A stretch of 64,000 nucleotides of DNA, from positions 553 to 64,552 of the forward strand of contig WJIW01000254.1 of the NCBI GenBank assembly GCA_014730065.1, in the 5' to 3' direction. Under the pieces are notes generated by a model. It worked only from the letters and a program-made list of their open reading frames with translations, made no database searches and was not told the DNA's origin. The DNA is from Armatimonadia bacterium (GTDB lineage: Bacteria; Armatimonadota; Zipacnadia; UBA1398). The position numbers and the translations under genes are program-made. Position 1 is the first letter of the stretch. Every line of letters starts with the position of its first letter. Below are positions 4,037-61,395 of this stretch, piece after piece.

Positions 4037-4115
4037 AGGGACCAGCCGACTGCACTCCGAAGACTCCGCACCGCGATCAGCGATACCTAGGTAGAGTCTG
4101 AGGAGGCGCGATCAC

Positions 4116-5720
4116 TTGAACCTGCAACGACCGAACGGCAATGATGCCACCCTTACGAGGAACCGCTCCCGGGACATCGTCCCCTTCTCGGGGATCTGCA
4201 CCCGGTGCACCGAGGACTGCACCGGCAACTGCGAGATCTTCAAGGCCTCCATGCGAGGCAGGGAGCTCATCTACCCCGAGCCCTTCGGTGACATGACCGC
4301 AGGCGCAGACAAGGAATACCCCATCGACTACTCCCACCTGAACATACTGGGCTATGCCCTGGGTGCCGAGGCCATCGATGAGGCCAATCCCGATAAAGCC
4401 ATCTTCCCCGGCGTGGACACCAGCACCGTGTACGGACACACCCACCCCGTGCGGATGAGGATGCCCATCTTCACGGGCGCGCTGGGCTCCACGGACATCG
4501 CCCGGAAGCACTGGCGGAGCTTCGCCGTGGGGGCGGCCATATCGGGGATCTCACTCGTCGTGGGTGAGAACGTATGCGGCATCGACCCCGAGCTGGAGCT
4601 GGACAACACGGGCAAGGTTGTCCGCTCACCGGAGATGGAGCGCCGGGTCAAGCTCTACAAGGACTGGCAAGATGAGTACGGCGACATCATCATCCAGCTC
4701 AATGTCGAGGATTCCAACCTGGGGGTCGCCGACTACGTGGTCAACGAGCTGGGCATTGAGACCCTGGAGCTGAAGTGGGGTCAGGGCGCCAAGTCCATCG
4801 GTGGGGAGATCAAGATCTTCGACCTGGACCGAGCCCTGGAGCTGCAGCGGCGCGGCTACATCGTCACCCCCGACCCATCGGATCCCGCGGTGCAGGCGGG
4901 CATGAAGAGCGGCGCGATTCGGGAGCTGGAGCGCCACTCCCGGCTCGGCTTCATCGATGAGGAGGAGTTCGTCCGGAACGTGGAGCGGCTCCGCCGGTCG
5001 GTGGGCGTGAAGCGCGTCACCCTGAAGACCGGGGCCTATAGCTTCCGGGAGCTGGCCATGGCCATCAAGTGGGCCTCCAAGGCTCGGGTCGACCTGGTTA
5101 CCATCGACGGCGCCGGCGGCGGCACGGGCATGAGCCCCTGGCGCATGATGGAGGAGTGGGGCGTGCCCACCTTCTACCTCCAGGCCATGGCCGTGGAGTG
5201 CGCCATGCGCCTGGCCCGGCGTGGCGAGTGGGTGCCCGATCTGGCCATGGCCGGCGGCTTCTCCACCGAGGACCACCTGTTCAAGGTCCTGGCCATGGGC
5301 TCACCTTTCTTCAAAGCGGTGTGCATGGGCCGTGCGCTGATGATACCGGGGTTCGTGGGCGACAACATCGCCGGCGTCCTGGGGCACGAGGGCGCCCAGA
5401 GCCGGTGGGAGTCCCTCCCCTCCACCGTCAGCCGGTACGGCGAGACGCCCGAGCAGATCTTCGTCAGCTACTCCACCCTCCAGGACCGGTACGGTGATGC
5501 CGCCAAGGACATCCCCCTGGGCGCTGTGGGGATCTTCACCTATGTGGACAAGCTGCGCACCGGCCTGACTCAGTTCATGGCGGGCGCGCGCAGCTTCCGA
5601 CTCGATACCCTCAAGCGACGCGACCTCGTCGCCCTGACCGAGGAAGCGGCGAAGGTATCGGGTCTCAACTACGTGATGGACGCGTATCGTGACGAGGCCG
5701 AGCGGATACTGGACGCGTAG
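4116..5720 (+). CDS. FMN-binding glutamate synthase (GltS domain) family protein with N-terminal Cys cluster
   Basis: 534 aa. Cys-rich N-term CTRCTEDCTGNCEIF. Conserved Glu_synthase-type motif IDGAGGGTGMSPW and GGFSTEDHLFKVLAMG, consistent with the stand-alone glutamate-synthase-domain-2 family. Confidence 0.65.
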   Translation: MNLQRPNGNDATLTRNRSRDIVPFSGICTRCTEDCTGNCEIFKASMRGRELIYPEPFGDMTAGADKEYPIDYSHLNILGYALGAEAIDEANPDKAIFPGVDTSTVYGHTHPVRMRMPIFTGALGSTDIARKHWRSFAVGAAISGISLVVGENVCGIDPELELDNTGKVVRSPEMERRVKLYKDWQDEYGDIIIQLNVEDSNLGVADYVVNELGIETLELKWGQGAKSIGGEIKIFDLDRALELQRRGYIVTPDPSDPAVQAGMKSGAIRELERHSRLGFIDEEEFVRNVERLRRSVGVKRVTLKTGAYSFRELAMAIKWASKARVDLVTIDGAGGGTGMSPWRMMEEWGVPTFYLQAMAVECAMRLARRGEWVPDLAMAGGFSTEDHLFKVLAMGSPFFKAVCMGRALMIPGFVGDNIAGVLGHEGAQSRWESLPSTVSRYGETPEQIFVSYSTLQDRYGDAAKDIPLGAVGIFTYVDKLRTGLTQFMAGARSFRLDTLKRRDLVALTEEAAKVSGLNYVMDAYRDEAERILDA

Positions 5721-5747
5721 GGCCGAACGCGATACAGCCGCGGGGCC

Positions 5748-6899
5748 TCAAGCCCAGGTGATCGAGCCCAGCAGCCGAGGCCCCGCGGCGCCCGTTACCG
5801 ACGGCACGTTGGCCGGCTGGCCGCGCATCAGCTCACTGCCCAGCAGCGCGAAGCCCATGGCCTCCTTGGCATCGCCGGGCACCCCGAGATCATCGGTGAG
5901 CCCGAGGGGTGCCCCCAGCTCCTCGGAGAGCCATGCCGTCAACACGGGATTGTGGGCGCCCCCGCCGCACACCACCACCTCCCCCGGCTGCGGCGTGAAG
6001 TCGATCAGCGCGCGGGCGATGGACCGAGCCACCCAGCGGGTTAGGGTGGCCACCAGATCGGCGCCCGTAGCCGCCCTCGGCTCGGAGGTAACGGCGTGCA
6101 CGAAGCCCTCGCCCAGCTCCTCCCGGCCCGTGGACTTGGGCGGACGCCGAGAGAGGTACGGGTGACTCATTAGGCGTCCCAGCAGTGCCTCATCCACCGT
6201 GCCCGAAGCCGCGAGCCGGCCGTCGACATCGTGGGGCAGGTCCGGGTCGGCCAGCCGGGCGGCGTGGTTGATGACCAAGTTGCCGGGGCCGGTATCGAAC
6301 CCCACGGGCGGGGCGTCACCCGGGAGATGGGTCACATTCGACATGCCGCCGATGTTCACGATGCTGCGTGGCGCGCCACCTGGCGCCGACAGCAGGACCC
6401 AATCCAGGTAGGGCAGCAAGGGAGCGCCCTCACCGCCGGCGGCCAGGTCCCGAGCCCGAAAGTCACTGGCTACCGGCAGGCCGGTCGCCTCGGCGATGAC
6501 GGCGGCTCGGCCGATCTGCATGGTGCATCGCTCGCCCAGATGCGGACCGCCTTCGGGGTAATGGCACACGGTGTGCCCATGGCTGGCGATGAGATCGATG
6601 GAGTGCCTCCCCGCAACCTCGCAAGCGACTTCGGCGATGAGGCGGCCCAGCCGCACGTCCAGCTCGGCGACGAATCCGGAGAGAGTCCCGGCCGGGTCGG
6701 AGGACACGCGCAGGAGAGCGGAAGTGGCCTCGGGATACGGCGTGGACGCGAACTCCAGCAGCCCCACCTCGGCCCCTCGCCCCGAGGCCGTCACGGAGCA
6801 CACGGCCACATCCAGCCCGTCGCAGGACGTTCCCGACATCACGCCAGCGACCACGGCCTCCTCGTCGGCGGGCCAAGGGTAGTGCGGGCCTGGTTCCAT
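5748..6899 (-). CDS. anmK: Anhydro-N-acetylmuramic acid kinase
   Basis: 383 aa. N-terminal GVMSGTSCDGLDVAVC motif characteristic of AnmK; ASKHA-fold length and layout. Confidence 0.85.
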   Translation of the reverse strand: MEPGPHYPWPADEEAVVAGVMSGTSCDGLDVAVCSVTASGRGAEVGLLEFASTPYPEATSALLRVSSDPAGTLSGFVAELDVRLGRLIAEVACEVAGRHSIDLIASHGHTVCHYPEGGPHLGERCTMQIGRAAVIAEATGLPVASDFRARDLAAGGEGAPLLPYLDWVLLSAPGGAPRSIVNIGGMSNVTHLPGDAPPVGFDTGPGNLVINHAARLADPDLPHDVDGRLAASGTVDEALLGRLMSHPYLSRRPPKSTGREELGEGFVHAVTSEPRAATGADLVATLTRWVARSIARALIDFTPQPGEVVVCGGGAHNPVLTAWLSEELGAPLGLTDDLGVPGDAKEAMGFALLGSELMRGQPANVPSVTGAAGPRLLGSITWA

Positions 6900-14903: not shown

Positions 14904-16019
14904 CTAGCGGTCCACGTCACCGAGCACGATGTCGATGCTGCCCAGGATCGCTACCACGTCAGCCAGCTTCCAGCCGGCGAGAGCCTTCTCGATCAAGTGT
15001 AGGTTCGAGAAGCAGCCCGAGCGGATCTTCAGCCGATACGGGGCTTCGCCTCCGTCGCCGATGGCGAAATACCCGCACTCGCCCCGGCCTCCTTCTACTG
15101 CACCGTACGCCACGCCCTCGGGCGTCTTGAAACGGGCGGGGAGCTTGGTGCGGATGTCCCCCTCGGGCAGGCCATCCAGGGCCTGCCGGCATAGCTTGAT
15201 CGACTCCCGGATCTCCATAGTGCGGCAGGTAAGCCGATCCAGGCAGTCGCCGCGCTCCCCCGTGACCACGTCGAAGTCGAGCTTGTCGTACACGCCGTAC
15301 GGCGCATCCCGGCGTAGGTCGAAGTCCACGCCCGAGGCCCGGGCCACGGGGCCCGAGGCGCCGAAGGCTCTGCACCTCTCGGCCGACATGGTCCCCACGC
15401 CCTCGATGCGAGCACGGGCGACTCGGTTGTTGGTGAACACGTCGTCGTACTCGGGGAGGCGCGACTCGACGGTTTTCAGGACCCGCCGGATCTCGGCGTC
15501 CAGGCCGGAAGGCAGGTCCCAGCCCACGCCGCCCACACGAATATAGTGGCAGGTCATCCGTTGGCCACTGAGCTTCTCGAAGATGTCGAGGAGCAGCTCG
15601 CGCTCCCTGAAGGTGTACAGGAACATGGTGGTGGCGCCCACGTCCATGGCGAAGGTGCCCACGAAAACCAGGTGGCTGGCGATGCGGTACAGCTCGGAGC
15701 TGAGAACCCTAAGCCACTCCGCCCGCTCGGGGACCTCCACCTGGGCGAGCCGCTCGGCGGCCAGGGCCATGGCCCATTCGCTGGTAATGGGCGACAGATA
15801 GTCCAGGCGGTCCGGCAGGGGCATGGCACGGATCCAGCCGTTCTGCTCGGTGAGCTGCTCGTGGCAGCGGTGCAGGTAGCCGATGACGAAGCGGGCCGAC
15901 TCGATGACCTCGCCCCGGAGCCGGAGAAGCAGCCGCAGCACCCCATGGGTGGAGGGGTGCTGAGGGCCCATGTTGATGAGCATCTCCTCGTGATGTACCG
16001 GCTCCGCGTGCCCCTGCAT
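14904..16019 (-). CDS. nuoD: NADH-quinone oxidoreductase subunit D
   Basis: 371 aa; NuoD/49-kDa signature (INMGPQHPSTHGVLRL…, …RLDYLSP…, C-terminal …GDVDR). Confidence 0.9.
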   Translation of the reverse strand: MQGHAEPVHHEEMLINMGPQHPSTHGVLRLLLRLRGEVIESARFVIGYLHRCHEQLTEQNGWIRAMPLPDRLDYLSPITSEWAMALAAERLAQVEVPERAEWLRVLSSELYRIASHLVFVGTFAMDVGATTMFLYTFRERELLLDIFEKLSGQRMTCHYIRVGGVGWDLPSGLDAEIRRVLKTVESRLPEYDDVFTNNRVARARIEGVGTMSAERCRAFGASGPVARASGVDFDLRRDAPYGVYDKLDFDVVTGERGDCLDRLTCRTMEIRESIKLCRQALDGLPEGDIRTKLPARFKTPEGVAYGAVEGGRGECGYFAIGDGGEAPYRLKIRSGCFSNLHLIEKALAGWKLADVVAILGSIDIVLGDVDR

Positions 16020-48235: not shown

Positions 48236-50623
48236 ATGATCAGCCCACGCTCGATACTGCTCGTCGCCGCGGCCAGTGCGTTAGCCTGCACCGGCCACGC
48301 CCAGGATGAAGGAGATCCGGCCATGACGCCGCCCATGCAAGTCAGTGGACGCTACCCACACCTGGCGGTGACCAACTCCAGCAGCGAATGCGGCATCGGC
48401 GCCGTGGCCGAGTGGGCCGGGCGCCTGTGGCTCGTCACGTACCCGCCCCACGAGCCCTCGGGGAGCGATGACAAGCTCTACTGGATCGACGGCGACCTGG
48501 TGCGCCACACCCATCCGGCATCCATCGGCGGAACCCACGCCTCCAGAATGGTCCATCGAGAGTCAGAGCAGCTCATCATGGGACCGTACTTCATCGATGC
48601 CGGCGGCGGTGTGCGCGTCTTCGCCCTCGCCGACTTCCCCGCCCGCCTGACCGCTGCCATGCGCCACCTCGAGGACCCCGTCGGAAGGGTGTACCTCCTC
48701 GGCATGGAGGAGGAGTTGTACGAAGTCGATGTGCGGACCCTGGCCGTGCGAGAGCTGTACGGTCTCGACGGAATACCCGTTTCGGGCACCCATGCCAAGG
48801 GGGGCTACAAGGCGCAGGACCGGCTGGTGTTTAGCAACAATGGCGACCGCCGATGGGCCGAGGACGGCGACTCCGGCGCCCTCGCCCAAGGCGATGGAGT
48901 CCACTGGGAGGTCGTCCACCGCGCGCCCTTCACGGAAGTCACCTCACGTGAGGGCATCGGTCCGACGGACTCGGCTGTGCCCCTGTGGTGCCTGGGGTGG
49001 GACCATCGCTCGGTCATCCTGCGGATCCTGGATGGCGGCCAGTGGCACGTGCTACGACTTCCCAAGGGGAGCTACACCCACGACGCGCTCCATGGCTGGT
49101 ACACCGAATGGCCGCGTATCCGCGAAGTAAGAGGAGGGACGTACCTCGCGCACATGCATGGCCTGTTCTGGGACTTTCCACCTACGATGAGCGCCTCGGA
49201 CCGTTCTGGCCTCCGGCCCATCTCCACCTACCTCAAGATGCCTGTGGACTACTGCGACTGGAACGGCCGGCTGGTTATGGGCTGCAATGACGCCTCGACC
49301 TTCGAGAACCCCTTCGTGAACCAGCCCAGCTCCAACCTATGGCTCGGGTCTCTGGAGGATCTGGCTCAGCTCGGCGGCCCTGCGGGCTACGGAGGCCCGT
49401 GGGTGAGTGATGCGGTTCGAGCCGGCCAGGCCTCGGACCCCTTTTTGGTCGGTGGGTTCGCCCACGTCACGCTGCACCTCTCGGCGGAGCCCGAGGCCAC
49501 CTTCGACGTGGAAGTGGACCAGAGCGGACGCGGCGATTGGCGCGCCATCGAATCGGTCAAGACCGGCCCCGGAGGGTACGCCTACCGGGTATGGACCGAG
49601 CCACGGGGCGGCGACTGGATCCGTCTGGTGCCCCATGGGAGCGACACGGAGGTCACCGCGTATCTCCACCTGACGACTCCGTACAGGGAGCAGAGAGCCC
49701 ACGGCTCGCGCCGGGTGCCCCTGAGCTTCGACGGCCTCGCCGATATAGACAGCCAGGCCCCCTGGTCGGGCGGCATCATCCGGCCTCGGGGCGGTGATCT
49801 GGGAACCCTCCACGGCTTGCTCCATCCGGCCAATGAGGGACAAGCCACGTACGTGGAGATGACGGCCGACTTGGGCCTGCATGCCGCTGACGATCCCGAA
49901 GCCGCCGCTTGGCTGGAGACCAGCCACGGCCTCGGCGGACCGGACTTCTCACTGGACCCGGCCTCGGTGGTGATGACGGGCGACGGCGGCGGGACGTACC
50001 GGCTCCCTCGCACCGCCCCCCAGTACGACCGAGCCTTCGAGCTAGGCTGGCCCCGAGGCATCCGGGAGGTCGTCACCGAGCGCTCGCTGATGAACATCCA
50101 TGGGACCTTCTATGAGCTGCCCCGGCCCTCGTCGGGGGGGCTGGAGCGGATTCGGCCCATCTCCACCCACGGTAAGAGGATCGTCGACTTCTGCTCCTGG
50201 CGGGGCCTGCTCGTGATGTCCGGGGTGCGGGAGTCGGCCGCGGCCGATGGGCACGTCTTCAGGGGACCGGATGGTCTGGCCCTCTGGCTCGGGGACGTGG
50301 ATGACATATGGGCCATGGGCAAGCCAGTGGGTTACGGCGGGCCGTGGCTGGACACACCCGTGGCCGCCGGCCAGGCTTCGGACCCGTACCTTATGGCCGG
50401 TTACGATCACAAGACGCTGACCCTGTCCCACGACGCCGCTGCCGCGGTGACCATGACTGTACAGGTCACGGCCGGCTTCGACGTGTGGCACGACTACGCT
50501 ACGGTATTGGTCCCGCCAGGCGTGGAGAAGTCCCATTCCTTCGCCACCGGCTTCTCGGCCCACTGGATGCGGGTCGTGGCCGATACCGACTGCCGGGCTA
50601 CGGCGCAGCTTCTGTACCGGTAA
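48236..50623 (+). CDS. Secreted 795-aa hypothetical protein with internal tandem duplication of a ~170-aa module
   Basis: Signal peptide MISPRSILLVAAASALACTGHAQ (GGAGG RBS). Two homologous modules: …YLAHMHGLFWDFPP…LRPISTYLKMPVDYCDWNGRLVMG…GYGGPWVSDAVRAGQASDPFLVGGFAHVTLHLSAEP… and …LMNIHGTFYELPRP…IRPISTHGKRIVDFCSWRGLLVMSG…GYGGPWLDTPVAAGQASDPYLMAGYDHKTLTLSHDA… No family recognised. Confidence 0.55.
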   Translation: MISPRSILLVAAASALACTGHAQDEGDPAMTPPMQVSGRYPHLAVTNSSSECGIGAVAEWAGRLWLVTYPPHEPSGSDDKLYWIDGDLVRHTHPASIGGTHASRMVHRESEQLIMGPYFIDAGGGVRVFALADFPARLTAAMRHLEDPVGRVYLLGMEEELYEVDVRTLAVRELYGLDGIPVSGTHAKGGYKAQDRLVFSNNGDRRWAEDGDSGALAQGDGVHWEVVHRAPFTEVTSREGIGPTDSAVPLWCLGWDHRSVILRILDGGQWHVLRLPKGSYTHDALHGWYTEWPRIREVRGGTYLAHMHGLFWDFPPTMSASDRSGLRPISTYLKMPVDYCDWNGRLVMGCNDASTFENPFVNQPSSNLWLGSLEDLAQLGGPAGYGGPWVSDAVRAGQASDPFLVGGFAHVTLHLSAEPEATFDVEVDQSGRGDWRAIESVKTGPGGYAYRVWTEPRGGDWIRLVPHGSDTEVTAYLHLTTPYREQRAHGSRRVPLSFDGLADIDSQAPWSGGIIRPRGGDLGTLHGLLHPANEGQATYVEMTADLGLHAADDPEAAAWLETSHGLGGPDFSLDPASVVMTGDGGGTYRLPRTAPQYDRAFELGWPRGIREVVTERSLMNIHGTFYELPRPSSGGLERIRPISTHGKRIVDFCSWRGLLVMSGVRESAAADGHVFRGPDGLALWLGDVDDIWAMGKPVGYGGPWLDTPVAAGQASDPYLMAGYDHKTLTLSHDAAAAVTMTVQVTAGFDVWHDYATVLVPPGVEKSHSFATGFSAHWMRVVADTDCRATAQLLYR

Positions 50624-51894: not shown

Positions 51895-53109
51895 TTGGAC
51901 TTCCAGATCAAGCCTAGCGCCGTGTACGTCCTCACCGCCTGCCTGGCGGCCGTCACCCTCATCCTCACCACCCACTTCGGCCTGCTACAAGAGGACCCGC
52001 TCTCCAACCCCGCCGGCGACGGTACCGTCTGGGCCGGGCCCAGCACCGATCACGGACCCCTCGACACCTCCGAGCGCCTGCTCCTCTGGCACTCCGAAGC
52101 CACCAGCCCCGTCTCCGGCCCACTCATCGCCTACGCCGGACGATCGGCCACGAGCTCATCGGACATCCTCGTCGTCCCCGCCGCCGGAGGAATGGCCCGC
52201 AATCTCACCCGTCACCCCGCCCGAGACACCCTTCCCACCTGGTCGCCCGACGGGTCGCAGATCGCCTTCATCCGGTACGATGACCACCACCACTACGTGT
52301 GCGTGGCTGGCGTCCAAGGCGGCCCACGTCCCCGGGCCCTCTCCGGCCCACTCAAGGGCGCATGCGAGGTGGCGTGGCATCCGTCGGGTAACCGGCTGGC
52401 CTACAGGGGCACCGATCCCGAAGGCCCGTCGAAGATCCGTCTCGTCTCCCTCGATGGCGTCACAACGACTATAGGTGATGGGGCCTTCCGCGACCAGGAG
52501 CCCCAGTGGTCGCCCTCGGGCGACGCCCTCGCCTTCGTACGCTTCGACGGCAGTCAGTCCCGCATCATGCTTGCCGGCCCGAGCGGGGAGGAAGCCACCC
52601 CGCTCCTCTCAGACCCCGGCCATTACCAGGGCCTGGCCTGGAGCCCCGATGGCCGGTCCCTGGCGGCCGTTCACGTGGTCCAAGGGCAGCCCCACCGCAT
52701 CGTCGTCCTGCAGCCCGATACCGCCCAGGGCAAGGTCTTCGATGTGGACCAATCCCTTCGACCCCGGCTCAAGTGGACTCCCGACAGCCGGAAGCTCGTG
52801 GCCGCCGCGGAGGGGAAGCTGGACTGGGACGTAGTGCTCGTTGACGCGCGGACCGGTCGGGTTGAGCCGGTGACCGAGGGCATGGCCCAGCGGTGGAGTG
52901 CCGAGACGGCGCGGGGCCACACGGATCTCCGCCGCACGGCCATCGAGTACGAGGCCGAGATGGGCCCCAGCGGAGATGAGCTGCTCTTCCTCAGCGACCT
53001 CAGTGGCCCGCCCGTCGGTCTGTTCGTGATGACCCTGGACGGCCGTGGAATCAAGCAGCTCGCGAGTGACGTGACGGCCGCCACATGGCAGCCCGTGCCT
53101 ACCCCGTGA
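51895..53109 (+). CDS. TolB-like / PD40 WD40-like beta-propeller repeat protein (N-terminal TM anchor)
   Basis: 404 aa (track start is TTG; start uncertain). N-terminal hydrophobic segment AVYVLTACLAAVTLILTT; repeated PD40 units (…PTWSPDGSQIAFIRYD…, …PQWSPSGDALAFVRFD…, …LAWSPDGRSLAAV…, …LKWTPDSRKLVAAA…). Confidence 0.7.
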   Translation: MDFQIKPSAVYVLTACLAAVTLILTTHFGLLQEDPLSNPAGDGTVWAGPSTDHGPLDTSERLLLWHSEATSPVSGPLIAYAGRSATSSSDILVVPAAGGMARNLTRHPARDTLPTWSPDGSQIAFIRYDDHHHYVCVAGVQGGPRPRALSGPLKGACEVAWHPSGNRLAYRGTDPEGPSKIRLVSLDGVTTTIGDGAFRDQEPQWSPSGDALAFVRFDGSQSRIMLAGPSGEEATPLLSDPGHYQGLAWSPDGRSLAAVHVVQGQPHRIVVLQPDTAQGKVFDVDQSLRPRLKWTPDSRKLVAAAEGKLDWDVVLVDARTGRVEPVTEGMAQRWSAETARGHTDLRRTAIEYEAEMGPSGDELLFLSDLSGPPVGLFVMTLDGRGIKQLASDVTAATWQPVPTP

Positions 53110-54610
53110 GCACCACGGGCACCACCATGACCTCGGCGTGCCCCGCCCGGGTGATCTCCACGGCGGCCCGGATCGGCCCCTCGAGGGGCTCCTCGGTGGA
53201 CAGGTGGAACGCCACGGAGCCCTCGCAGGGGAAGGGCGCCTGCTTCACGTGGACCGAGGCGAAGGGCGCCGGATCGATCTCGATCCCCTCGGGCAGGTAC
53301 CACTTAATGCGCAGCGTGGCCGGGATCTTGTAGCGGTTGGTCAGCTTGAGCGTGACGGACCGGGCTTGCCCCGGCTTGAGCGATGGGTCGCCGCCGTAGT
53401 CCACCACTACGTCGAAGAAGGCGAAGCGGTGGCGGGTGCCGCCCAGCGCCGAGTACGGCGCTTGTCGCCGGTCGTGCCCAGCCAGGCGTGGCAAGCCGGC
53501 CAAGTCGGTGGGCGCGTCGGACAGAGCGATGCCGCGTCGGATTCGGCCGAGGACCTGGCGTGCCATGGCTTCGGTTCGGGCCGTCAGGTCATCCACATTC
53601 TGGGGAAGCTGATTGCCGAGGAAGCCCAGCTCACCCAAGTTCAGGCATGCCGTCTTGATGGTGCGGCCGATGGGCTCGATCCACTCCTCGGGTATCGCCT
53701 CGGCGCCATGGATGATCCCCCAGATGGCGCCCACCGTCGCCGCCGTACAGTCCGTATCCTCGCCGCAGTTCACGGTGGTGCAGAGCGTGCTGGCGAAGTC
53801 GCCCTCGCCGTAGAGAAGCCCGAGAACGACCAGAGCCACGTTCGACGGCGCGTCCCAACCCAGCTCGCCCTCGTGGAATCCCTTGGCGCGGTCCTCCTCA
53901 CTGGTGCACCATTCGTACCCCATGTGAGTGCTGCCTCGGAACTCGCCCAGCAGGCGGTCCCGGGCATCGCGCCAAGGCATGCCCGAATCGTACGAGTCGA
54001 TCACCTGGCGCACGGCCCTCGCGATCCCGCAGTCGCCGGGTATGTAGGAGAGCCCGATGTCGATCAGCTCCCGCAGGTCGCCCTGCACGAAGGCAGCGCT
54101 CTCCAGGGCCGCGCAGAACACCTCGCCGAAGAGCCCCTCGCCGTCGCCGTGATCGAGAATGCCGTCCTCGTACGCGTACCTCGCCGCCACGTCGGGGCAT
54201 CCGGGGGCGACACAGCCCCAGATCTCCGACCGGATGAAGCATCCGCAGCTATGCTTGTAGGGGTTGTTCAGGCTGCCGGACAGGGGTGGCATCAGTCCGG
54301 TCTGGAGGTTGATCTTGGCGTTGCCGTACTCGCACCAGTGGGGCGTCACGTAGAGCAGCCAGTACTCGGCCAGGGCATGGGCGTCGAGATCGGGGCCCAT
54401 CTCCTCGAGGGCCACCAGCCACAGAAGCTGGATGTCCAGGTCGTCGTTGGGCAGGGGCTCGCCGCCCAGGTCCTGGGTATAGAAGGACACGTCGTTAATC
54501 TGCCGGCGCCACTCGAAGGGCGCCCCCAGGGTACCCCCGATGTTCTTACCAAGCCAGCATCCCAGCACCTTAGTGCGGTACTCCGGGGCATTGAGGTTCA
54601 TCTGCGTCAC
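53099..54610 (-). CDS. ADP-ribosylglycohydrolase family protein with ~150-aa C-terminal beta-rich extension
   Basis: 503 aa. N-terminal ARH signature KVLGCWLGKNIGGTLGAPFE; Asp/Thr-rich metal-binding region (…CGEDTDCTAATVGAIWG…). 15-nt gap to the upstream fusion-cytochrome gene. Confidence 0.75.
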   Translation of the reverse strand: MTQMNLNAPEYRTKVLGCWLGKNIGGTLGAPFEWRRQINDVSFYTQDLGGEPLPNDDLDIQLLWLVALEEMGPDLDAHALAEYWLLYVTPHWCEYGNAKINLQTGLMPPLSGSLNNPYKHSCGCFIRSEIWGCVAPGCPDVAARYAYEDGILDHGDGEGLFGEVFCAALESAAFVQGDLRELIDIGLSYIPGDCGIARAVRQVIDSYDSGMPWRDARDRLLGEFRGSTHMGYEWCTSEEDRAKGFHEGELGWDAPSNVALVVLGLLYGEGDFASTLCTTVNCGEDTDCTAATVGAIWGIIHGAEAIPEEWIEPIGRTIKTACLNLGELGFLGNQLPQNVDDLTARTEAMARQVLGRIRRGIALSDAPTDLAGLPRLAGHDRRQAPYSALGGTRHRFAFFDVVVDYGGDPSLKPGQARSVTLKLTNRYKIPATLRIKWYLPEGIEIDPAPFASVHVKQAPFPCEGSVAFHLSTEEPLEGPIRAAVEITRAGHAEVMVVPVVLTG

Positions 54611-54625
54611 TCCGTCAGATCGAGA

Positions 54626-57600
54626 CTAGTGGACCACCTTGGGCCAGTATCGCTCTTCGTCGAAGTGGGGGCTCTTGCCCTCCGTGTGGCACGTGAGGCA
54701 GGTTGCGGCGGTGAGGGGCTCTAGGATCTCGTGGCCCTGGGCGGTAGCGGGACCGACTCGGTGGCAGGCCACGCACGAGACATCGGGCAGCCGGGCGGCC
54801 TCGGGCTCCAAGGGTGCCGCCGAGTGGCAGTCCCAGCAGTCGGGATCGAACTCCCGGTCCAGGTCTCGGAGCGTCTGGGCGGCCGAGGCGTGGGGGGTCG
54901 CCTGCCACTGCTCAAGCTGCTCGGCGTGGCACGCGCCACACGCCTGGGGCTGGGCGGACTCATCCACTCCCGCCGCCAGAATACGCTCCCGCTGCTCGGC
55001 CTGCACTTCGTCCTGGTAGTCGGCGATGAGTGCCGATACTTGGGGGCTCTCCAGGATCTGGTCATCCATCGGGATGAGCTGGGGCTCAGCCGATACGGGC
55101 CGAAGGTCCTCATCGAGCCGCAAGGTCAGCCGGCCGACCCACTCGCCGTTCTGGCCGGCGGAGACGATCCAGGTGTCATCCGCTCGCTCGGGCACCTGAA
55201 GCGACCGTCCCTCGTGGCCACACACGATCACGTCCACGTCCTCGACGGCCTCGGCGAGAGCTCGGGCATCCTCGACGTAGCCGTGGTAGAGCACCACGAC
55301 CAAGGAGGTGGACGGCGCCACCGAGGCGACTTCGGCTCGGACGCGCTCGAGGGGATCGGCCAGGGCCACGCCCTCGGGAGCCTCGCCATCACCGAAGGCG
55401 AAGGCTCGGGGGGAGGTGACCGACACCACGCCCACGCTCACGCCGCGCCGGTCGATGATCTGCGCCGAAGGCTCCACGCCGTCCACGGCGGCATTGGCCG
55501 AGACGTAGGGCATTGGCGAGCCCTGCATCAGCGCGGACAGCACATCAGCGCCATAGGTCAGGTCCTGATCGCCAATGGCGATGGCGTCGTAGTCCATGAC
55601 CTCGAAGGCCTTCTGGATGTACTCGAACTTGGTCCAGTCCTGGGTGGCCCCGAGCACGTCGCCGCTGTCGACCACGATGGAGGCGGGGTACATGTCCCGG
55701 AGCTCTGCTATGGCCCCGGCCTGACGGGTAAGGCCGCCGTAGGGGTTGCCGGGGCAGCGGCATGCTTCGAGCTGCCCGTTGGTGCTCCCCGTGTAGACGA
55801 TGGTGAGGGACGTGGGCGCCAGCCCGATGCGGTCTGCTATCGTGAGGGCTGTGTCGGCGCCGGCGATGTCGGCCACCTCGCGGTTCTCGTAGAGCAGCAG
55901 GCAGTCACCGTACACGCCCATCTGGGCCTGGGACTGGGCATCCCGGTAGAGGGCGTCCAAGATCCCGCCCGGTGCCGTCGCCTCGGCGCGGATGGCCTGG
56001 GGATCGAGGCCCGCCCGCTCCAGCGGCGCGTCCCAATAGCTGCTGTTCCCGGCGGCCAGCCGGGCCTCCAAGTACGCCGCCATGGCGTCGGGATGATCCC
56101 GCCACACAACGGCCTGGCGCGCCGCTTCCTCGATCTCCGCCACGCCCCCCTGGGCGGCCAGGTCACCCGACTCACTGAGGCTCAGGGCGGGGTGGAGCTC
56201 GACCTCGTACGCGGCCCGGTCGCCCGCTCGCTCCAGGAGAGAGAGCACGGTGGTCACCGCCTCCAGGGCCGGCGGATACTGGCAGCGGTAGTAGAGATCG
56301 ATACGACCCGGCTCGCGCTCGCGACCCACCATCAGGCCCGACGAGGTATGCTCGGGGAGGACCATGTAGTACTCCCCGGTCCGCGTCAGAGCCTGGGAGA
56401 TCTGCTCCAGGTTCGGGCGCTGCTCAAGCTGATCGGCGGGCAGGAAGAAGGCGGGGAGCCATCCCACCTCCGCCATCTCCGACAGCCGGCGCCCCTCCTC
56501 GCTATCGTAGGCCACCTCCCGTGGCTCGAGCCCCGGCATCAAAGCGGCGAGATCGCTCACCAAGGGCCGGTGACTCGTCAAGGCGGCCTCCTCGGAGCCG
56601 ACCACGATCAGCTCCAGGGGCGTGGGATCCTCGTACTCGCAGCGAGCGTCGCCCGTTCCGGCATCCCGGCAATAGCCGATCTGACCCGGCTCGAGGCAGT
56701 CGCCGTGATCGGTGCACTCGGGCACTCCCGCGCAGCGCTCCCCGCGAAGCTGGTCGGGGAGAGTCCAGCAGAACGTCCGGAGCAGGGCGGGGGCGAAGTT
56801 GTCGTCCTCGTACTCGATGTTGTTCAGGTAAAGGGTGGGCGTGCCGGGGATCATGAAGCGGCGAGCCCGGTTGGCGTGGGCTAGGAGCATCCGAGTGACT
56901 TGCTCGGAAGTCGCGTGCTCCCCGACGACCTCGGGGTCGATACCCTGGGCCTCCATGACGGCCGTGGCTTCGGCCCCCGGTTGCACGGCGCGCAGGGCAG
57001 CGTACCGGGTCACGGCCTCCCGCCCATAGAGGACCTGGATGGCGATCTCGCGGCGGGCCTCGGCGACGGCTTCGGGCCCGAAGGTCGACACGAACTGACC
57101 GGTCTCATTGTCGTAGTGAACCACATGCCATCGGCGGACCTGGACGCGATCCTCGCCGAAGAGACCCAGGGCCTCACGTAGCTGGGGCTCCAGCTCCAGG
57201 CAGTAGCCACAGCCCCAGGCGGTGTACGAATCGAGCACCAGCCGCGGCCCCTCGAGGGTGTCCTTGCGCTCCAGCCACTGGGCGACACGCTCCGCCTGCC
57301 CGGGGTCGTCGGGCACGCTGGGGTCCAGGGGAATCTCGCGCAGGCGGTACTCAGCGATCTCGGCTTCATCCACCCGGAGATCGAGGCGAGACAGGGCCCG
57401 GCCCTCCAGGCTGAACTCACCGATGATGGCCTCGCCGACCTTGTCCACAAGGCCGCCCGGACGGCGGTAGTGAGCATTGAGGAAGATGTCCACATCGGGC
57501 ACCGACTCGGCCAGGAGGCGGGTGCGGTCACTGCCCAGGTGAGAGAGGACCACCATCAGGTCGACTTGGCCCCGGATCTCGTCCACCACCGAGTGGACGC

Positions 57601-58195
57601 CTTCGATGGGGTCGCCCACCTGGGCCCACATGGCCTGGCGCGGATCGCCCAGGGCGTAGAGGTCCAGTGGTGTGGCGGCGGTGATCCCCACGGTGACGCC
57701 CCCGACCTCGGTGATGAGGTACCGCTCCACGCCCGCCTCACGGGCGGGCTCCTGGCCCATGTTCGCCGAGAGGAAGGGCGCGCCACCCAGCTCGGCGGCT
57801 CGGGCCAGGAACTCGGGCCCCCACTGTAGCTCCTCATCGCCCACGGCGTAGGCGGCGTAGCCCATGTCCGCACAGGCCCGGAGGTGGACCTCGGTGCGTG
57901 CCTGGTCGACTACGGGTCCCTCGGTGTACTCGTCGTACGCCGACCCGCCGAACTGACCCCCCGCATCCAGGAGCAGTGTGGGCGTGAGTCCGCCCCGGCG
58001 CACCTGCTCGATCATGTGGGCCCGGCGGGCGATGCCCCCGTCCTTGCTCACGACGCAGTCGCAGGGGGTGACCATGGCGTGGGTCTCGCCGGTGTACGCG
58101 ATAGTGATGTCTTTGACGTCGGCGCCGACGGGCAGAGCTGGCAGCAAGGCGAAGAGGCAGAGCGCCCGGGCGACCCGGGCGCCGGGAATGGTCAT
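54626..58195 (-). CDS. Periplasmic multidomain fusion: 2x degenerate 5'-nucleotidase/metallophosphoesterase-like domains + DsbA-like thioredoxin (CGYC) + C-terminal tetraheme c-type cytochrome (4x CxxCH)
   Basis: Track ORF 54626..58315 trimmed to MTIPGARVARALCLFALLPALPVGADV (signal; ATG 58195). Domain 1 (DITIAYTGETHAMVTPCDCVV…LLLDAGGQFGGS…VVLSHLGSDRTRLLAESVPDVDIFLNAH) and domain 3 (LTIVYTGSTNGQLEACRCPGNPYGG…VVVLYHGYVEDARALAEAVEDVDVIVCGHEG) follow the 5'-NT layout, but the D-x-H / GNHE metal ligands are replaced by Cys-containing motifs. Middle region has WGCGYC … IPGTPT (DsbA-like). Last ~110 aa: CGACH, CWDCH, CVACH, CLTCH. Confidence 0.6.
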   Translation of the reverse strand: MTIPGARVARALCLFALLPALPVGADVKDITIAYTGETHAMVTPCDCVVSKDGGIARRAHMIEQVRRGGLTPTLLLDAGGQFGGSAYDEYTEGPVVDQARTEVHLRACADMGYAAYAVGDEELQWGPEFLARAAELGGAPFLSANMGQEPAREAGVERYLITEVGGVTVGITAATPLDLYALGDPRQAMWAQVGDPIEGVHSVVDEIRGQVDLMVVLSHLGSDRTRLLAESVPDVDIFLNAHYRRPGGLVDKVGEAIIGEFSLEGRALSRLDLRVDEAEIAEYRLREIPLDPSVPDDPGQAERVAQWLERKDTLEGPRLVLDSYTAWGCGYCLELEPQLREALGLFGEDRVQVRRWHVVHYDNETGQFVSTFGPEAVAEARREIAIQVLYGREAVTRYAALRAVQPGAEATAVMEAQGIDPEVVGEHATSEQVTRMLLAHANRARRFMIPGTPTLYLNNIEYEDDNFAPALLRTFCWTLPDQLRGERCAGVPECTDHGDCLEPGQIGYCRDAGTGDARCEYEDPTPLELIVVGSEEAALTSHRPLVSDLAALMPGLEPREVAYDSEEGRRLSEMAEVGWLPAFFLPADQLEQRPNLEQISQALTRTGEYYMVLPEHTSSGLMVGREREPGRIDLYYRCQYPPALEAVTTVLSLLERAGDRAAYEVELHPALSLSESGDLAAQGGVAEIEEAARQAVVWRDHPDAMAAYLEARLAAGNSSYWDAPLERAGLDPQAIRAEATAPGGILDALYRDAQSQAQMGVYGDCLLLYENREVADIAGADTALTIADRIGLAPTSLTIVYTGSTNGQLEACRCPGNPYGGLTRQAGAIAELRDMYPASIVVDSGDVLGATQDWTKFEYIQKAFEVMDYDAIAIGDQDLTYGADVLSALMQGSPMPYVSANAAVDGVEPSAQIIDRRGVSVGVVSVTSPRAFAFGDGEAPEGVALADPLERVRAEVASVAPSTSLVVVLYHGYVEDARALAEAVEDVDVIVCGHEGRSLQVPERADDTWIVSAGQNGEWVGRLTLRLDEDLRPVSAEPQLIPMDDQILESPQVSALIADYQDEVQAEQRERILAAGVDESAQPQACGACHAEQLEQWQATPHASAAQTLRDLDREFDPDCWDCHSAAPLEPEAARLPDVSCVACHRVGPATAQGHEILEPLTAATCLTCHTEGKSPHFDEERYWPKVVH

Positions 58196-58226
58196 CGTGT
58201 GGGTCCTTCGCTCCCCCGATGCGGGG

Positions 58227-59564
58227 TTATTGGGGATCCGCGCAGCAGCGGAATCCGACGTAGTCTCCCTTAAGGACGGGGTGCTTCGGTCCTCCCGTGC
58301 TACAGTCGAATCCATCGAGCCGCTGGTCGCGGAAGGACGCGCCGCGGATGTCCACGGTGGTGTCCTCGGAGCCCCAGCCGCTCCCGATGTACTCGCTTAC
58401 ATTACCGATCATGTCATAGAGCCCGTACCCGCTGACGCAGTAAGGGCGGGACCCGATGCGCTCGGGGTGGGCGTCCTCCCCCATCATGACGCCGATGTTG
58501 CAGGCGCCCCGCACGGGACGGTCGCCGTACGGGAAGCGGTGCCCGTCGGGCCCTTCGCAGCCGGCCTCCCACTCGTCGGGCTCACAGAGGCGCTTCCCCT
58601 TGCCCCCGCACCAGCCCGCGGCGCCGAACTGGTTGATGTCGGTTACGGGCTTGGCACCCACGATGTTGGGCGCCTCGTAGATGTCGATGCATACCCGGTC
58701 CTCGACCAGGCGCATGCCCGCGGGACACTTGGGCTCCGGGGGCACGCTCTTCATGAAAAGAGTGTCATCGGCCTGGCCACCCATTAGGGTAGGGGTCTGG
58801 GCGCCGCCCTCGGCCCCCTGGAAGGCCTGCTGAGCCGTCGCCGTGGTGAAGGCCACCAGCTCCTTGATGGAGACGTTCGAGTCGGCGGGCTCAGTGTCGG
58901 CCATGCCCGTGATGGCGTTGGTCAGGCAGAACCCCAGCAGGGGACGCTCCAGGGACTCGTCGTTGAGCTCCTGGCCCGGCGAGACGGCCGAAAGCAGGAG
59001 GCAGCTCGCGGCCAGAGGCTCGAGGACGTTCCCGGGGATGGCCAAATCCTCGGGAGTGCCCTCGGGCTTGAAGGCGCTCCAGGGCGAAGTGTCGAGGATC
59101 AGCAGCTTCTTGCCGGCGGGAATGGCCGCCATGTACTCGGCGAGCTGCTCCACCGTCAGCGCCGTACTGGGCAGGTCATCCAGGTCGGCGTTGTAGGGGC
59201 AGACGTAGATGGTGGGAGCGCCCTCTTCGCTCGCCTGGGCGACCATGGTCAGGCAGAGGTAGACGAAGACCTCGTCGGTCTCGGCAGCGGTCTGACAGAA
59301 CTCCAGGGCGCCTACCAGGTTCGCCCGGCTCGCCTGCCCGCCCGAGAGGGCGCCCACATGCTCCATGGGCACGGCGCCGATGTCGGGGTTGGCGAACCGC
59401 TCGGCGGCGATGAAGGCATAGGTCTCCCCCTCGACGCGGCCGGGGATGTCGAAGTCCTCGTACTCGTTCACGCCCGCACATACGGCGAAGCGCTGGGCTT
59501 CCTGGGCCCACACCCCCGTCGCAAGCAACCCGAGTAAGATGGACCCTAGCCACACACGTTTCAT
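58227..59564 (-). CDS. Secreted caspase-like (catalytic-dyad-substituted) domain + formylglycine-generating-enzyme (FGE/SUMF1) domain protein
   Basis: 445 aa, signal MKRVWLGSILLGLLATGVWAQ. N-terminal FAVCAGVNEYEDF…LLILDTSPWS resembles the peptidase C14 fold, but the His (YLCLTM) and Cys (ILDTSP) positions are substituted. C-terminal FGE-sulfatase domain (…YGLYDMIGNVSEYIGSGW…RGASF…CCADPQ). Confidence 0.6.
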   Translation of the reverse strand: MKRVWLGSILLGLLATGVWAQEAQRFAVCAGVNEYEDFDIPGRVEGETYAFIAAERFANPDIGAVPMEHVGALSGGQASRANLVGALEFCQTAAETDEVFVYLCLTMVAQASEEGAPTIYVCPYNADLDDLPSTALTVEQLAEYMAAIPAGKKLLILDTSPWSAFKPEGTPEDLAIPGNVLEPLAASCLLLSAVSPGQELNDESLERPLLGFCLTNAITGMADTEPADSNVSIKELVAFTTATAQQAFQGAEGGAQTPTLMGGQADDTLFMKSVPPEPKCPAGMRLVEDRVCIDIYEAPNIVGAKPVTDINQFGAAGWCGGKGKRLCEPDEWEAGCEGPDGHRFPYGDRPVRGACNIGVMMGEDAHPERIGSRPYCVSGYGLYDMIGNVSEYIGSGWGSEDTTVDIRGASFRDQRLDGFDCSTGGPKHPVLKGDYVGFRCCADPQ

Positions 59565-59618: not shown

Positions 59619-60650
59619 ATGGATACACTAGAGACAGGGGCGATTCGTTTGGCACGAGCAGGCCGGTCCAAGCCGTGGGTGCGCATCGGCTCTCTCGTCG
59701 GGCTGCTCATCGTCGCTCCCTTCCTGCTCTACGCCGCGGTGCGTCTGTACGGCGCCTACATGGATCAGAAGGCCGCCGGAAACCGTGAGATCTGCCTCGA
59801 CAACCTAAGGGTCATCGGAACCTTGCTCCGATCGTACGCCCTGGATCACGATGACCGCCTGCCTCCCGCCGACCGCTGGGAGGACGTACTCCTTGAAGAC
59901 ACGGGAGACCCCCGAGTGTTCCAGTGCCCCTCGGCTCCCAAGGGCACCCGGTCCGGCTATGCCTACTTCGCCGACCTCTCGAGCGGCTCCCTCGCCAACC
60001 TGATCTCCCCCGCCGACGTGCCCATGGTGTACGACTCACCCAAGGGCACGTGGAACGCACGGGACAGCTACCCGGAGCTGCCCAGCCCGCCTCGCCACGG
60101 CGGACGCAATCATGCCCTCATGGCCGACGGCTCGGTGCAGCGCCTCGCACCTTTCGACGTCTGGGTCGGCGCCCGGTTCCAGGATGACGGCGAGGGCGGG
60201 CCGGGCGAAGTGAAGACACTGCCGGGCCATACGGGCCCCAGCGTGCTGTTCCAAGCCCAGACGCCCATCGCCTTCCGGACCGAGCACGGCATCGAGTGGA
60301 CGGCTCGGGAGCTGCCGGACGGGTACCTGTTCGTGGGCCCCGCGGAGTCGGAGATCCTGACCCGGATTCGCTGGCCGGGCGAGGGAGAGGGGCTCCCTCC
60401 CCTACCGCCGACGGCTACTATCGAGGACCGGTACCCGATCGCCATGGCTCCCGACCCGGGCCAGTACTCGGTCATAGGTGAGGCGATGGAGTATGTGGAT
60501 GGCGACGTCCGGGTGCTTCGGATCGAGCTGCCCATGGATCCGGCCATGGTGGCCACGGTGCGGGTGCCCACGGCCGCTGGGGAGGAGCAGCTCGGCGAGG
60601 CCTGCCTTCCCCTCACGGCTCTCAGGCGGGTCGAGACATCGGGCCCATAG
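59619..60650 (+). CDS. DUF1559-like H-X9-DG protein with N-terminal TM anchor instead of prepilin motif
   Basis: 343 aa. TM segment WVRIGSLVGLLIVAPFLLYAAV; then the region conserved with the DUF1559 genes at 37480-39417 (NREICLDNLRVIGTLLRSYALDHDDRLPP vs AKQTSCLSNQRQIATALLSYAQDYDERLP) and H-X9-DG motif HGGRNHALMADGS. Confidence 0.6.
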   Translation: MDTLETGAIRLARAGRSKPWVRIGSLVGLLIVAPFLLYAAVRLYGAYMDQKAAGNREICLDNLRVIGTLLRSYALDHDDRLPPADRWEDVLLEDTGDPRVFQCPSAPKGTRSGYAYFADLSSGSLANLISPADVPMVYDSPKGTWNARDSYPELPSPPRHGGRNHALMADGSVQRLAPFDVWVGARFQDDGEGGPGEVKTLPGHTGPSVLFQAQTPIAFRTEHGIEWTARELPDGYLFVGPAESEILTRIRWPGEGEGLPPLPPTATIEDRYPIAMAPDPGQYSVIGEAMEYVDGDVRVLRIELPMDPAMVATVRVPTAAGEEQLGEACLPLTALRRVETSGP

Positions 60651-60696
60651 CCGCTATAATGCCCCCGAGTCCCGCTCCATCACGAGGAGGCGCTTC

Positions 60697-61395
60697 ATGC
60701 ATCGCTGGCCGATCGGACTGCTTCTCGCCCTCATCGCCATTCCCGCGGCTCTGGCCCAGAGCGGGCCCTTGCCCGACGTTCCCCGCGACCATCCCGCGGC
60801 ATGGGCCGTGGCCACCTTGTGGCGGGCCGATGTCGTCCGCGGCGGTCCCGACGGCCTGTTCCACGGGGACGAGCCCATCACCGAGCTGGAAGCCATCGTT
60901 CTGGCCGCCAGGTTGAGTGCCGCGGTCAACAACGAGTACCTCATCCGGGATGACTGGACCGTGGATCAGTACCTGGCGCGGTACTGGGAGTCGGACTACC
61001 CCGCTCGCGGGGGCGTGCCCCTGCCCGCGGGGCATTGGGCCGCTATGGAGTGGAACTACCTGGCGTGGGTGACCCCGCGTGAGCTGGAGCTGCTCGATGG
61101 CTGGCCGCGGCCGCTACCCACCCGGTACCAGGCGGCCCTGTCCGCGGCCCGGGTCCTTCTGGCCACCCGGCGCGCCGTGCGTGAGGGCATCGCCGACACC
61201 TATGCCGAGACGATGCTCCCCGATACAGCGATCAACGACACCCTCCCGCTGGACCAAGTGCCATGGGAGGAGCATATGTCCGAGCACGGCGAGCCGCCCA
61301 TGCCGGTCGAGGGAGCCGGGGGCGCCCAAGCCGGTCCGATGCAGCCCCCGCCGCCCCCGGCCGAGATGATGTCCGGGCCCGGCGGGGATGGCTAG
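60697..61395 (+). CDS. Secreted S-layer-homology (SLH) domain protein with Pro/Met-rich C-terminus
   Basis: Track ORF 60478..61395 trimmed to MHRWPIGLLLALIAIPAALAQ (GAGGAGG RBS 7 nt upstream). SLH-type motif PDVPRDHPAAWAVATLWRADVVRGGPDGLFHGDEPITELEAIVLAARL. Confidence 0.55.
   Translation: MHRWPIGLLLALIAIPAALAQSGPLPDVPRDHPAAWAVATLWRADVVRGGPDGLFHGDEPITELEAIVLAARLSAAVNNEYLIRDDWTVDQYLARYWESDYPARGGVPLPAGHWAAMEWNYLAWVTPRELELLDGWPRPLPTRYQAALSAARVLLATRRAVREGIADTYAETMLPDTAINDTLPLDQVPWEEHMSEHGEPPMPVEGAGGAQAGPMQPPPPPAEMMSGPGGDG

Follow-up and report, generated by a model that had tools for sequence, protein, structure and literature searches.

A UshA-like selenoprotein with a CxU motif (COG0737) was listed in 2008 from ocean metagenomes by Zhang and Gladyshev (PMC2398784), and later reviews list the families NF041198 (CxU) and NF049981 (CxxU) (PMC9312934, PMC13188914). 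A cysteine form of this UshA-like CxU selenoprotein family was found in a 64,000-nucleotide stretch of contig WJIW01000254.1 from an Armatimonadia bacterium (assembly GCA_014730065.1); this whole stretch is referred to here as the window. The gene lies on the minus strand between positions 54626 and 58195 and encodes, in a single chain, two UshA/5'-nucleotidase-fold domains, which as such are not new, a GILT/DsbA-like middle region, and a C-terminal tetrahaem cytochrome. We read the protein as a periplasmic multi-centre dithiol/haem redox relay built on a dead phosphoesterase scaffold, and not as a nucleotidase, and we put the probability of this reading at about 55%.

The product is identical to GenBank MBD3175307.1, named "hypothetical protein" in an Armatimonadia metagenome-assembled genome (MAG). 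Close relatives are labeled "hypothetical protein," "multiheme c-type cytochrome," or, in IMG, "2',3'-cyclic-nucleotide 2'-phosphodiesterase." A preliminary description made from the letters of the sequence alone had recognized nucleotidase-like, DsbA-like, and four-haem modules, and these are borne out by profile and fold searches, which back nucleotidase and GILT/DsbA folds and a c554-type cytochrome. The 1189-aa open reading frame and all of the strings quoted in that description are present: PCDC (aa 44-47), LLLDAGGQFGGS, VVLSHLGSD and VDIFLNAH, WGCGYC (aa 327-332), IPGTPT, ACRCPGNPYGG (aa 811-821), VDVIVCGHEG, and four CxxCH motifs at aa 1086, 1120, 1141, and 1166. Every full-length homologue, to as low as 40% identity, keeps the motifs, and all modules are strongly conserved over 40 to 97% identity.

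Domain architecture and the C-x-C loops

The features of the gene, all on the minus strand, are as follows.

54626..58195, minus strand: whole open reading frame, 1189 aa plus stop (TAG at 54626-54628)
58204..58209, minus strand: Shine-Dalgarno-like GAAGGA, 9-14 nt 5' of the ATG at 58195, read directly in the sequence
58121..58195, minus strand: predicted Sec-type signal peptide, aa 1-25, MTIPGARVARALCLFALLPALPVGA, from reading of the sequence
57296..58120, minus strand: UshA/5'-nucleotidase-fold domain 1, aa 26-300, type A (NF041198, PDB alignments, MAFFT, Foldseek)
58055..58066, minus strand: P44-C45-D46-C47 loop, Cys equivalent of the PCGU selenocysteine motif (alignments)
56756..57244, minus strand: GILT/DsbA-like thioredoxin-fold domain 1, aa 318-480 (Pfam DSBA below threshold, AlphaFold2, Foldseek)
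57200-57211, minus strand: C329-G-Y-C332, within thioredoxin-fold domain 1
56837-56842, minus strand: cis-Pro loop T452-P453, within IPGTPT, Pro453 invariant
56639..56734, minus strand: Cys-rich mini-domain, aa 488-519, C-x5-C-x5-C-x8-C-x9-C (alignment, sequence)
55826..56638, minus strand: second thioredoxin-like plus DsbA-like unit, aa 520-790 (AlphaFold2, Foldseek)
55016..55810, minus strand: UshA-fold domain 2, aa 796-1060, type B (NF041198, NF049981, MAFFT)
55754..55762, minus strand: C812-R813-C814 within ACRCPGNPYGG, aligned to the CGU-P of selenocysteine forms (alignments)
54629..54958, minus strand: tetrahaem c-type cytochrome, aa 1080-1189 (Pfam, NF041198, alignment)
54926-54940, 54824-54838, 54761-54775, and 54686-54700, minus strand: CxxCH motifs, in all full-length homologues

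If translation began at the in-frame ATG further upstream, at 58315, the product would have 1229 aa; the start at 58195 is favored because homologues start there, because it is preceded by the Shine-Dalgarno-like hexamer, and because the upstream gene has its stop at 58227. The attachment of c-type haem requires an exported location.

The C-x-C loops of both nucleotidase-like domains are equivalent to the selenocysteine motif of relatives, which have an in-frame TGA codon in place of the second Cys. Such a codon yields KPCGU in Eisenbacteria loci L026 and L030, DCGUP in UBP11 and Delongbacteria (L039 to L041), and PCGU in all three tandem paralogues of locus L042. A word-indexed homologue search gave few relatives, and an exhaustive hidden Markov model (HMM) search with the full-length alignment over 1.84 billion representatives was used instead. 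Among its best matches, the loop motif is CxC in 99, CxxC in 9 (e.g., PCGHCP), and absent in 9, a variation more in keeping with a redox dithiol than with a fixed metal geometry. In the structural model, confidence is lowest at the C-x-C loops, within domains that are otherwise well predicted (predicted local distance difference test [pLDDT], 67 and 51, with shallow prediction alignments of 14 rows), which is consistent with mobile loops.

The three L042 paralogues lie at ~2900-6800 on the plus strand; two of them carry four haems and one carries none, and each is split at the TGA by gene callers. Genes for a CBS-domain pyridoxal phosphate enzyme, an Exo_endo_phos protein, a cystathionine-lyase-type protein, and an M20 peptidase lie 3' of them. 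The selenocysteine-type UshA-like proteins from UBP11 and Delongbacteria encoded at 7935-8966 in L039 and 7926-8909 in L040 are ~300 aa long, and a second in-frame TGA near their C terminus (ELENUWP) marks either the true stop or a further selenocysteine.

The preliminary description had the Cys motifs replacing the Asp/His metal ligands at the N termini of the nucleotidase-like domains. When the protein is aligned to canonical 5'-nucleotidases with HMMER and MAFFT, domain 1 has E37-T-H39 and domain 2 has S804-T-N806 at the DxH position, and the C-x-C/U sits 6 to 8 residues past the motif-I His, in the loop ahead of a GG[LIV]A[RK]R helix (MAFFT, with which HMMER alignment to PDB nucleotidases agrees). 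Given this offset in sequence alignment, the Cys motifs do not replace the ligands, and that part of the description, which had itself named such an alignment as grounds for its refutation, is abandoned.

The NCBIfam model NF041198, "UshA-like (seleno)protein," scores 319.4 bits on the whole protein against a cutoff of 275, a value reached only by summing three pieces, namely, aa 1-320 (123.3 bits; model positions 15-269), aa 785-1075 (123.4 bits; model positions 22-269), and aa 1060-1189 (72.6 bits; model positions 406-517); one UshA-plus-cytochrome unit of the protein gives only ~196 bits. Since these pieces match the nucleotidase-like domains and the cytochrome, the curated family is itself a nucleotidase fold joined to a tetrahaem cytochrome. 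With NF049981 (UshA-like selenoprotein family 2), the whole protein reaches 86.8 bits and domain 2 by itself 50.6 bits, under the 140-bit cutoff, and the UshA model NF007109 gives 65.8 bits, far under its cutoff of 600. No match to Pfam Metallophos (PF00149) or 5_nucleotid_C (PF02872) was found in the protein at an E value of ≤1, nor did a Pfam scan of domain 1 alone return any match at that threshold, so that this domain is recognized by NCBIfam only. The C-terminal nucleotide-binding domain is missing after domain 1, and the protein as a whole has no C-terminal substrate-binding domain. Foldseek, run with the full-length model (pLDDT, 81), places the N-terminal domains of 5'-nucleotidases, CD73, UshA, and SoxB among its matches at E values of ~1e-19 (5'-nucleotidases, 2e-19), and the nucleotidase-fold superposition covers ~310 aligned columns with a root mean square deviation of ~3.5 Å.

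The five ligand motifs (I to V), aligned with MAFFT, read as follows.

Canonical 5'-nucleotidase P0023: NDLH / DAGD / GNHE / SHLG / GGHSH
Domain 1 of the fusion protein: GETH / DAGG / GDEE / SHLG / NAHYR
Domain 2 of the fusion protein: GSTN / DSGD / GDQD / YHGY / CGHEG
Selenocysteine form L039: GSNN / DTGD / GDQE / AQLN / AGNNR

Domain 1 has no bridging Asp (DAGG), domain 2 has no DxH (STN), and GNHE has become GD[EQ][ED] in both; in the selenocysteine form L039 both His are gone as well. Neither domain carries the complete dimetal set (DxH, GD, GNH, H, GH), nor does the family as a whole keep it, and hydrolysis of nucleotides by this protein is unlikely.

The 470-aa middle region consists, in the AlphaFold2 model and by Foldseek comparison, of tandem GILT/DsbA-like thioredoxin domains. 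NCBIfam matches nothing in it, and Pfam matches it weakly, with DSBA (PF01323) scores of 18.7 to 23.9 bits against a cutoff of 25.6; the fold match to GILT/DsbA has a probability of 1.00, and both the CGYC and the T-P453 loop are present. The model of aa 305-800 has a pLDDT of 87.8, and its top PDB folds are mouse GILT (6nwx; E value, 6.5e-8; target-normalized TM-score [TMt], 0.75) and many DsbA proteins, e.g., 3bci. In the Cys-rich mini-domain, C494, C500, C509, and C519 are invariant. The second unit (aa 520-790), which no Pfam or NCBIfam model matches, contains no CxxC in this protein and has a conserved EEAARQ motif.

The C-terminal cytochrome is recognized by Pfam Cytochrome_C554 (PF13435) with 30.7 bits, over the cutoff of 20.8. 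Its four CxxCH motifs lie within ~85 residues, and three further His conserved in the alignment are candidates for distal ligands of the four predicted haems.

Module shuffling and the candidate redox relay

The HMM search was followed by a census of modules.

UshA1-DsbA1-midB: 73
UshA1-midB: 39 (UshA plus GILT/DsbA without other modules, together ~112 clusters)
DsbA1-midB alone: 10
UshA-cytochrome-DsbA-midB, other order: ~11 (P0084 and others)
UshA-cytochrome without further modules: 4 among the top-listed matches (P0146 has SCTCPGNPYGS and four haems)
All five modules in order: 3 clusters (P0006, P0010, and P0028, clustered at 50% identity) plus one fragment
Two-Cys membrane domain-UshA-DsbA-midB: 1 (P0075)

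Among the collected genomes, only Armatimonadota MAGs (L004 to L007) had the full form, and shorter forms were found in Latescibacterota, Poribacteria, Coatesbacteria, Fibrobacterota, Omnitrophota, and others. Both units occur separately, and the Armatimonadia protein is thus a rare Rosetta-stone fusion of two independent units. The preliminary description had considered the architecture not assignable to any described family. This stands for the five-module order, which no library model covers and which, like the unnamed family of UshA plus GILT/DsbA proteins, is undescribed in the libraries searched; it does not stand for the parts, as NF041198 matches both nucleotidase-like domains and the cytochrome, and a CxU/CxC UshA-like protein with a cytochrome is a kind already catalogued, though uncharacterized.

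A further partner is a polytopic membrane domain with two conserved transmembrane Cys (GINPC...; CTGQxYLP). In L034 (Edwardsbacteria) it is fused to a UshA-like CRC domain and two CxxC thioredoxin-like modules, and in 5 Omnitrophota loci the same domain, with a DUF1573-like GCAC head, is encoded directly upstream. It lies at ~4860-7553 in L034 and 6767-7978 in L027, both on the plus strand, and was also seen in L022, L024, L025, L031, and protein P0075. Searches gave no Pfam match at an E value of ≤10, no PDB match, and a weak match to the ArsG family (E value, 1e-3). The domain may represent an undescribed DsbD-like thiol relay family.

Modules for electron transfer invariably accompany the nucleotidase-fold domain, be they a tetrahaem cytochrome, GILT/DsbA-like folds, or the two-Cys membrane domain, and this context points to redox chemistry at the Cys/selenocysteine loop and away from hydrolysis. 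Together with the equivalence to selenocysteine, the interchange with CxxC, and the decayed hydrolase site, it leads us to infer a redox role for the C-x-C motifs. The protein would be exported to the periplasm, where each UshA-fold domain would act as a phosphoesterase scaffold displaying a redox-active C-x-C dithiol on a flexible loop after the first beta-strand, and these dithiols would swap electrons with the GILT/DsbA-like CxxC and the tetrahaem cytochrome. The likeliest direction is reductive: haems charged by the respiratory chain or a periplasmic carrier would feed the dithiol centres, which could then reduce a periplasmic S-S, S-X, or selenium-containing substrate or an oxyanion in the former phosphate pocket. 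That the relay probably acts as a reductase is weakly suggested by GILT as the closest fold, by selenocysteine in relatives, and by the putatively DsbD-like membrane domain. A thiol-redox role in place of nucleotide hydrolysis, one of two options raised in the preliminary description, is therefore retained as the best reading, and the other, a different metal or cluster chemistry, is weakened by the interchange of CxC, CxxC, and CxU and by residual ligand positions that are not conserved across the family.

Several observations weigh against the relay. In the type-A clade, E37, H39, D120, E122, H219, and H242 are invariant or nearly so, which means that a remnant metal or anion site may be of importance. 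In the wider family, the DsbA-like CxxC does not keep its second Cys, and CPYG is commonest, so the module may work as a monothiol; the full-length clade holds a true CxxC (WGCGYC). The membrane domain is not identifiable as DsbD/CcdA-like, which leaves the reductive direction weakly founded. Within the window there are no genes for thiol-redox or cytochrome-maturation partners, and our literature searches found no paper with functional data on these families; those for SoxB-like proteins with cytochromes returned nothing bearing on the family, and those combining nucleotidase, selenoprotein, and multihaem returned no papers.

In one alternative, the C-x-C and the remaining His/Asp/Glu would build a new mononuclear or thiolate-ligated metal site for metal or metalloid chemistry with haem electrons. 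The C-x-C lies just 6 to 8 residues past the first ligand motif, two His are retained in each domain (H219 and H242 in the first, H971 and H994 in the second), the type-A residues at ligand positions are nearly invariant, and three conserved distal His for four haems would leave one haem open or otherwise ligated. We nevertheless consider such a site unlikely, because CxC, CxxC, and CxU replace one another in relatives, some of which have no Cys at all, because ligand positions differ among type A, type B, and selenocysteine forms, and because the C-x-C loops are of low confidence in the model; the recurrent fusion partners, moreover, are thioredoxin-fold and two-Cys membrane modules and not metal-handling domains. 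Similarly improbable is a SoxB-like "mini-Sox" in which the C-x-C Cys would carry a thiosulfate or sulfane adduct, the haems would take the coupling electrons, and a residual metal site would hydrolyze the sulfonate. The best profile beyond NF041198 is indeed SoxB TIGR04486, with 123.6 bits over the full chain and 71 and 60 bits for the single domains, the fold matches include SoxB 2wdc, and ligand positions are retained in domain 1 (E37/H39, H219, and H242) and domain 2 (D846, D876, H971, and H994). A sulfur-metabolism cluster (CBS and cystathionine lyase) lies downstream of the L042 selenocysteine paralogues, and 5'-nucleotidase-family proteins have been proposed to act on tetrathionate (PMC7608252). 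The SoxB score, however, is far under the TIGR04486 cutoff of 550, the binuclear set is incomplete in both domains and nearly all lost in the selenocysteine form L039, no sox genes were found in the window or related loci, and this explanation leaves no role for the GILT/DsbA modules.

The same modules would also serve a relay running the other way, in which the dithiols oxidize periplasmic thiols (to disulfides, or small thiols or sulfide) and electrons pass through the haems to the respiratory chain. Mia40 (CPC motif), Erv1, and cytochrome c provide a precedent for such an oxidative relay, of which the protein would be a bacterial functional analogue. The closest folds include the oxidants of the DsbA type, the full-length clade has its true CxxC, and the host encodes the NADH dehydrogenase complex subunit NuoD and so respires. 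The closest single fold, GILT, is nonetheless a reductase, and reduction is also the better match for the selenocysteine variants and for the fusion to a two-Cys membrane domain that putatively relays from inward to outward; we rate the oxidative direction as slightly less probable still than the two metal-based explanations. Least credible by far is that the Cys pairs are merely structural disulfides and the protein is a cytochrome for electron transfer that carries inert, decayed domains. HMMER does place C47 opposite a Cys of a CD73 loop, which we take to be part of the C51-C57 disulfide, but relatives have selenocysteine at the same position, and selenocysteine serves in catalytic redox sites and is not known to fill structural ones. 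The strong conservation of all modules and their recurrence in independent fusions likewise speak against inert domains.

Beyond the dithiol/haem relay itself, the UshA-like C-x-C/C-x-U scaffold and its GILT/DsbA-like partner might constitute an unrecognized class of periplasmic redox enzymes with an interchangeable electron-input module, which in this protein would be the fused tetrahaem cytochrome and in others a two-Cys membrane thiol relay, a proposal that we advance only tentatively. If it were true, the protein would be a direct haem-c-to-disulfide (or disulfide-to-haem) coupler, giving bacteria a path to periplasmic thiol redox that needs neither DsbB nor DsbD, or, alternatively, a member of a new oxyanion or chalcogen reductase family derived from a dead phosphoesterase.

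Genomic neighborhood

The genes flanking the fusion gene are as follows.

58227..59564, minus strand: upstream gene for an exported 445-aa protein, 31 nt from the fusion gene (Pfam PF03781, weak NF047832)
53099-54610, minus strand: ADP-ribosylglycohydrolase gene (PF03747; E value, 3.5e-46), 15 nt downstream of the fusion gene

The upstream product has a caspase-like N-terminal half (NF047832; E value, 1e-4, weak) and a partial C-terminal domain resembling formylglycine-generating enzyme (FGE)-sulfatase. This FGE-like gene lies upstream in L001, L002, L004, L005, and L006, and as a fragment in L003. It is the only neighbor kept with the full-length fusion in all Armatimonadota loci examined, including that of the 40%-identity member, and it was not found in the examined loci of other phyla. 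As a modifier of the fusion protein it was rejected, since the protein has no C-x-P-x-R and the neighbor, compared by eye with human FGE, has no catalytic Cys pair. The downstream ADP-ribosylglycohydrolase is probably an incidental association, since a flavin adenine dinucleotide (FAD) oxidoreductase takes its place in L001 and L002. Divergent genes at 59619-60650 and 60478-61395 (both plus strand) encode prepilin-type/H-X9-DG-like and SLH-domain proteins and are syntenic with the fusion gene in L001, L002, L004, and L006, which probably reflects shared ancestry and not function.

Clustering of neighbors over 38 loci gave no partner conserved across phyla. The Omnitrophota synteny is of housekeeping genes (trigger factor by Pfam; ClpP, SerA, and PurA by eye), a Fibrobacterota neighbor resembles tyrosyl-tRNA synthetase, and the Eisenbacteria and Delongbacteria neighbors resemble housekeeping genes, both by eye. 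Promoter and terminator scans over 52.9-59.9 kb found none. The rest of the window (NuoD, a sulfatase, a PAS histidine kinase, glycosidases, and others) offers no functional link to the fusion protein. The sulfatase (PF00884; 18320-19702, minus strand), whose N terminus looks Tat-signal-like by eye, and the nuo region, with NuoD at 14904-16019 (minus strand) and open reading frames whose N-terminal sequences suggest other nuo subunits at ~6.9-16.6 kb, are the ordinary chromosomal context of a respiring heterotroph. An exported 795-aa protein encoded at 48236-50623 (plus strand) has no Pfam or NCBIfam match and is apparently internally duplicated, with two copies of a repeat reading ...GGPW..AGQASDP(F/Y)L..G(F/Y).H.TL.LS...

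Comparison with known systems

Almost twenty years after the CxU UshA-like family was first catalogued, the fusion and module shuffling described here give it a first concrete, testable context. For proteins of this kind, the annotation "2',3'-cyclic-nucleotide 2'-phosphodiesterase" is probably wrong. The Armatimonadia protein is a tractable all-Cys representative for biochemistry, for which selenocysteine insertion is unnecessary, and if haem-to-dithiol coupling proves true, it would be a new means of powering periplasmic thiol chemistry in several poorly studied phyla.

The closest described family is NF041198. Residues ~790-1189 have the same layout as its members, a P-C-x-[U/C] loop before a GGxARR helix and then a tetrahaem cytochrome, and the stand-alone relative P0146 shares the CxCPGNPYG motif. 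In the alignments, the PCGU of L026 and L030 and the CGU of L039 stand opposite PCDC (aa 44-47) and ACRC (aa 811-814). Whereas NF041198 describes a single unit of ~450-520 aa, the fusion protein has 1189 aa with two nucleotidase-like domains, one cytochrome, and a 470-aa GILT/DsbA-like insert, and it uses Cys where the selenocysteine-containing members use selenocysteine. Residues 1-790, in turn, align end to end with the unnamed family of UshA C-x-C plus tandem GILT/DsbA proteins (~580-800 aa) of Fibrobacterota, Omnitrophota, Latescibacterota, Poribacteria, and Coatesbacteria, with which they share YTGETHA..PCxC, DAGG, GDEE, the Cys-rich knot, and EEAARQ. Members of that family have neither the second UshA-like domain nor the cytochrome, and mostly have CPYG instead of CxxC.

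With 5'-nucleotidase/UshA/CD73 and SoxB, the protein has the catalytic N-terminal fold in common and a recognizable sequence similarity, but the catalytic His of GNHE is replaced by Glu/Gln and the family scores are far under the cutoffs. The GILT/DsbA proteins share the thioredoxin fold with its helical insert, the N-terminal active-site Cys, and the cis-Pro loop (TMt to Staphylococcus aureus DsbA, 0.72-0.75), although identity is 12 to 20% and the module here is tandem, with a second copy without Cys and a Cys-rich knot between the two. Like the small multihaem cytochromes of the c554/NrfB type, the cytochrome has four CxxCH and three conserved distal His; unlike them, it is fused to a non-haem catalytic scaffold, and it scores 31 bits in the Nitrosomonas c554 model against a cutoff of 400. 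DsbD/CcdA-fed reductases and the Mia40-Erv1-cytochrome c system would be analogous in concept only, as a dithiol relay joined to a membrane thiol transporter or to cytochrome c and with C-x-C as redox motif, with no relationship in sequence or fold. By these tests of membership, the protein qualifies neither as a 5'-nucleotidase nor as a SoxB and is probably no true DsbA; it belongs in part to the UshA-like (seleno)protein family.

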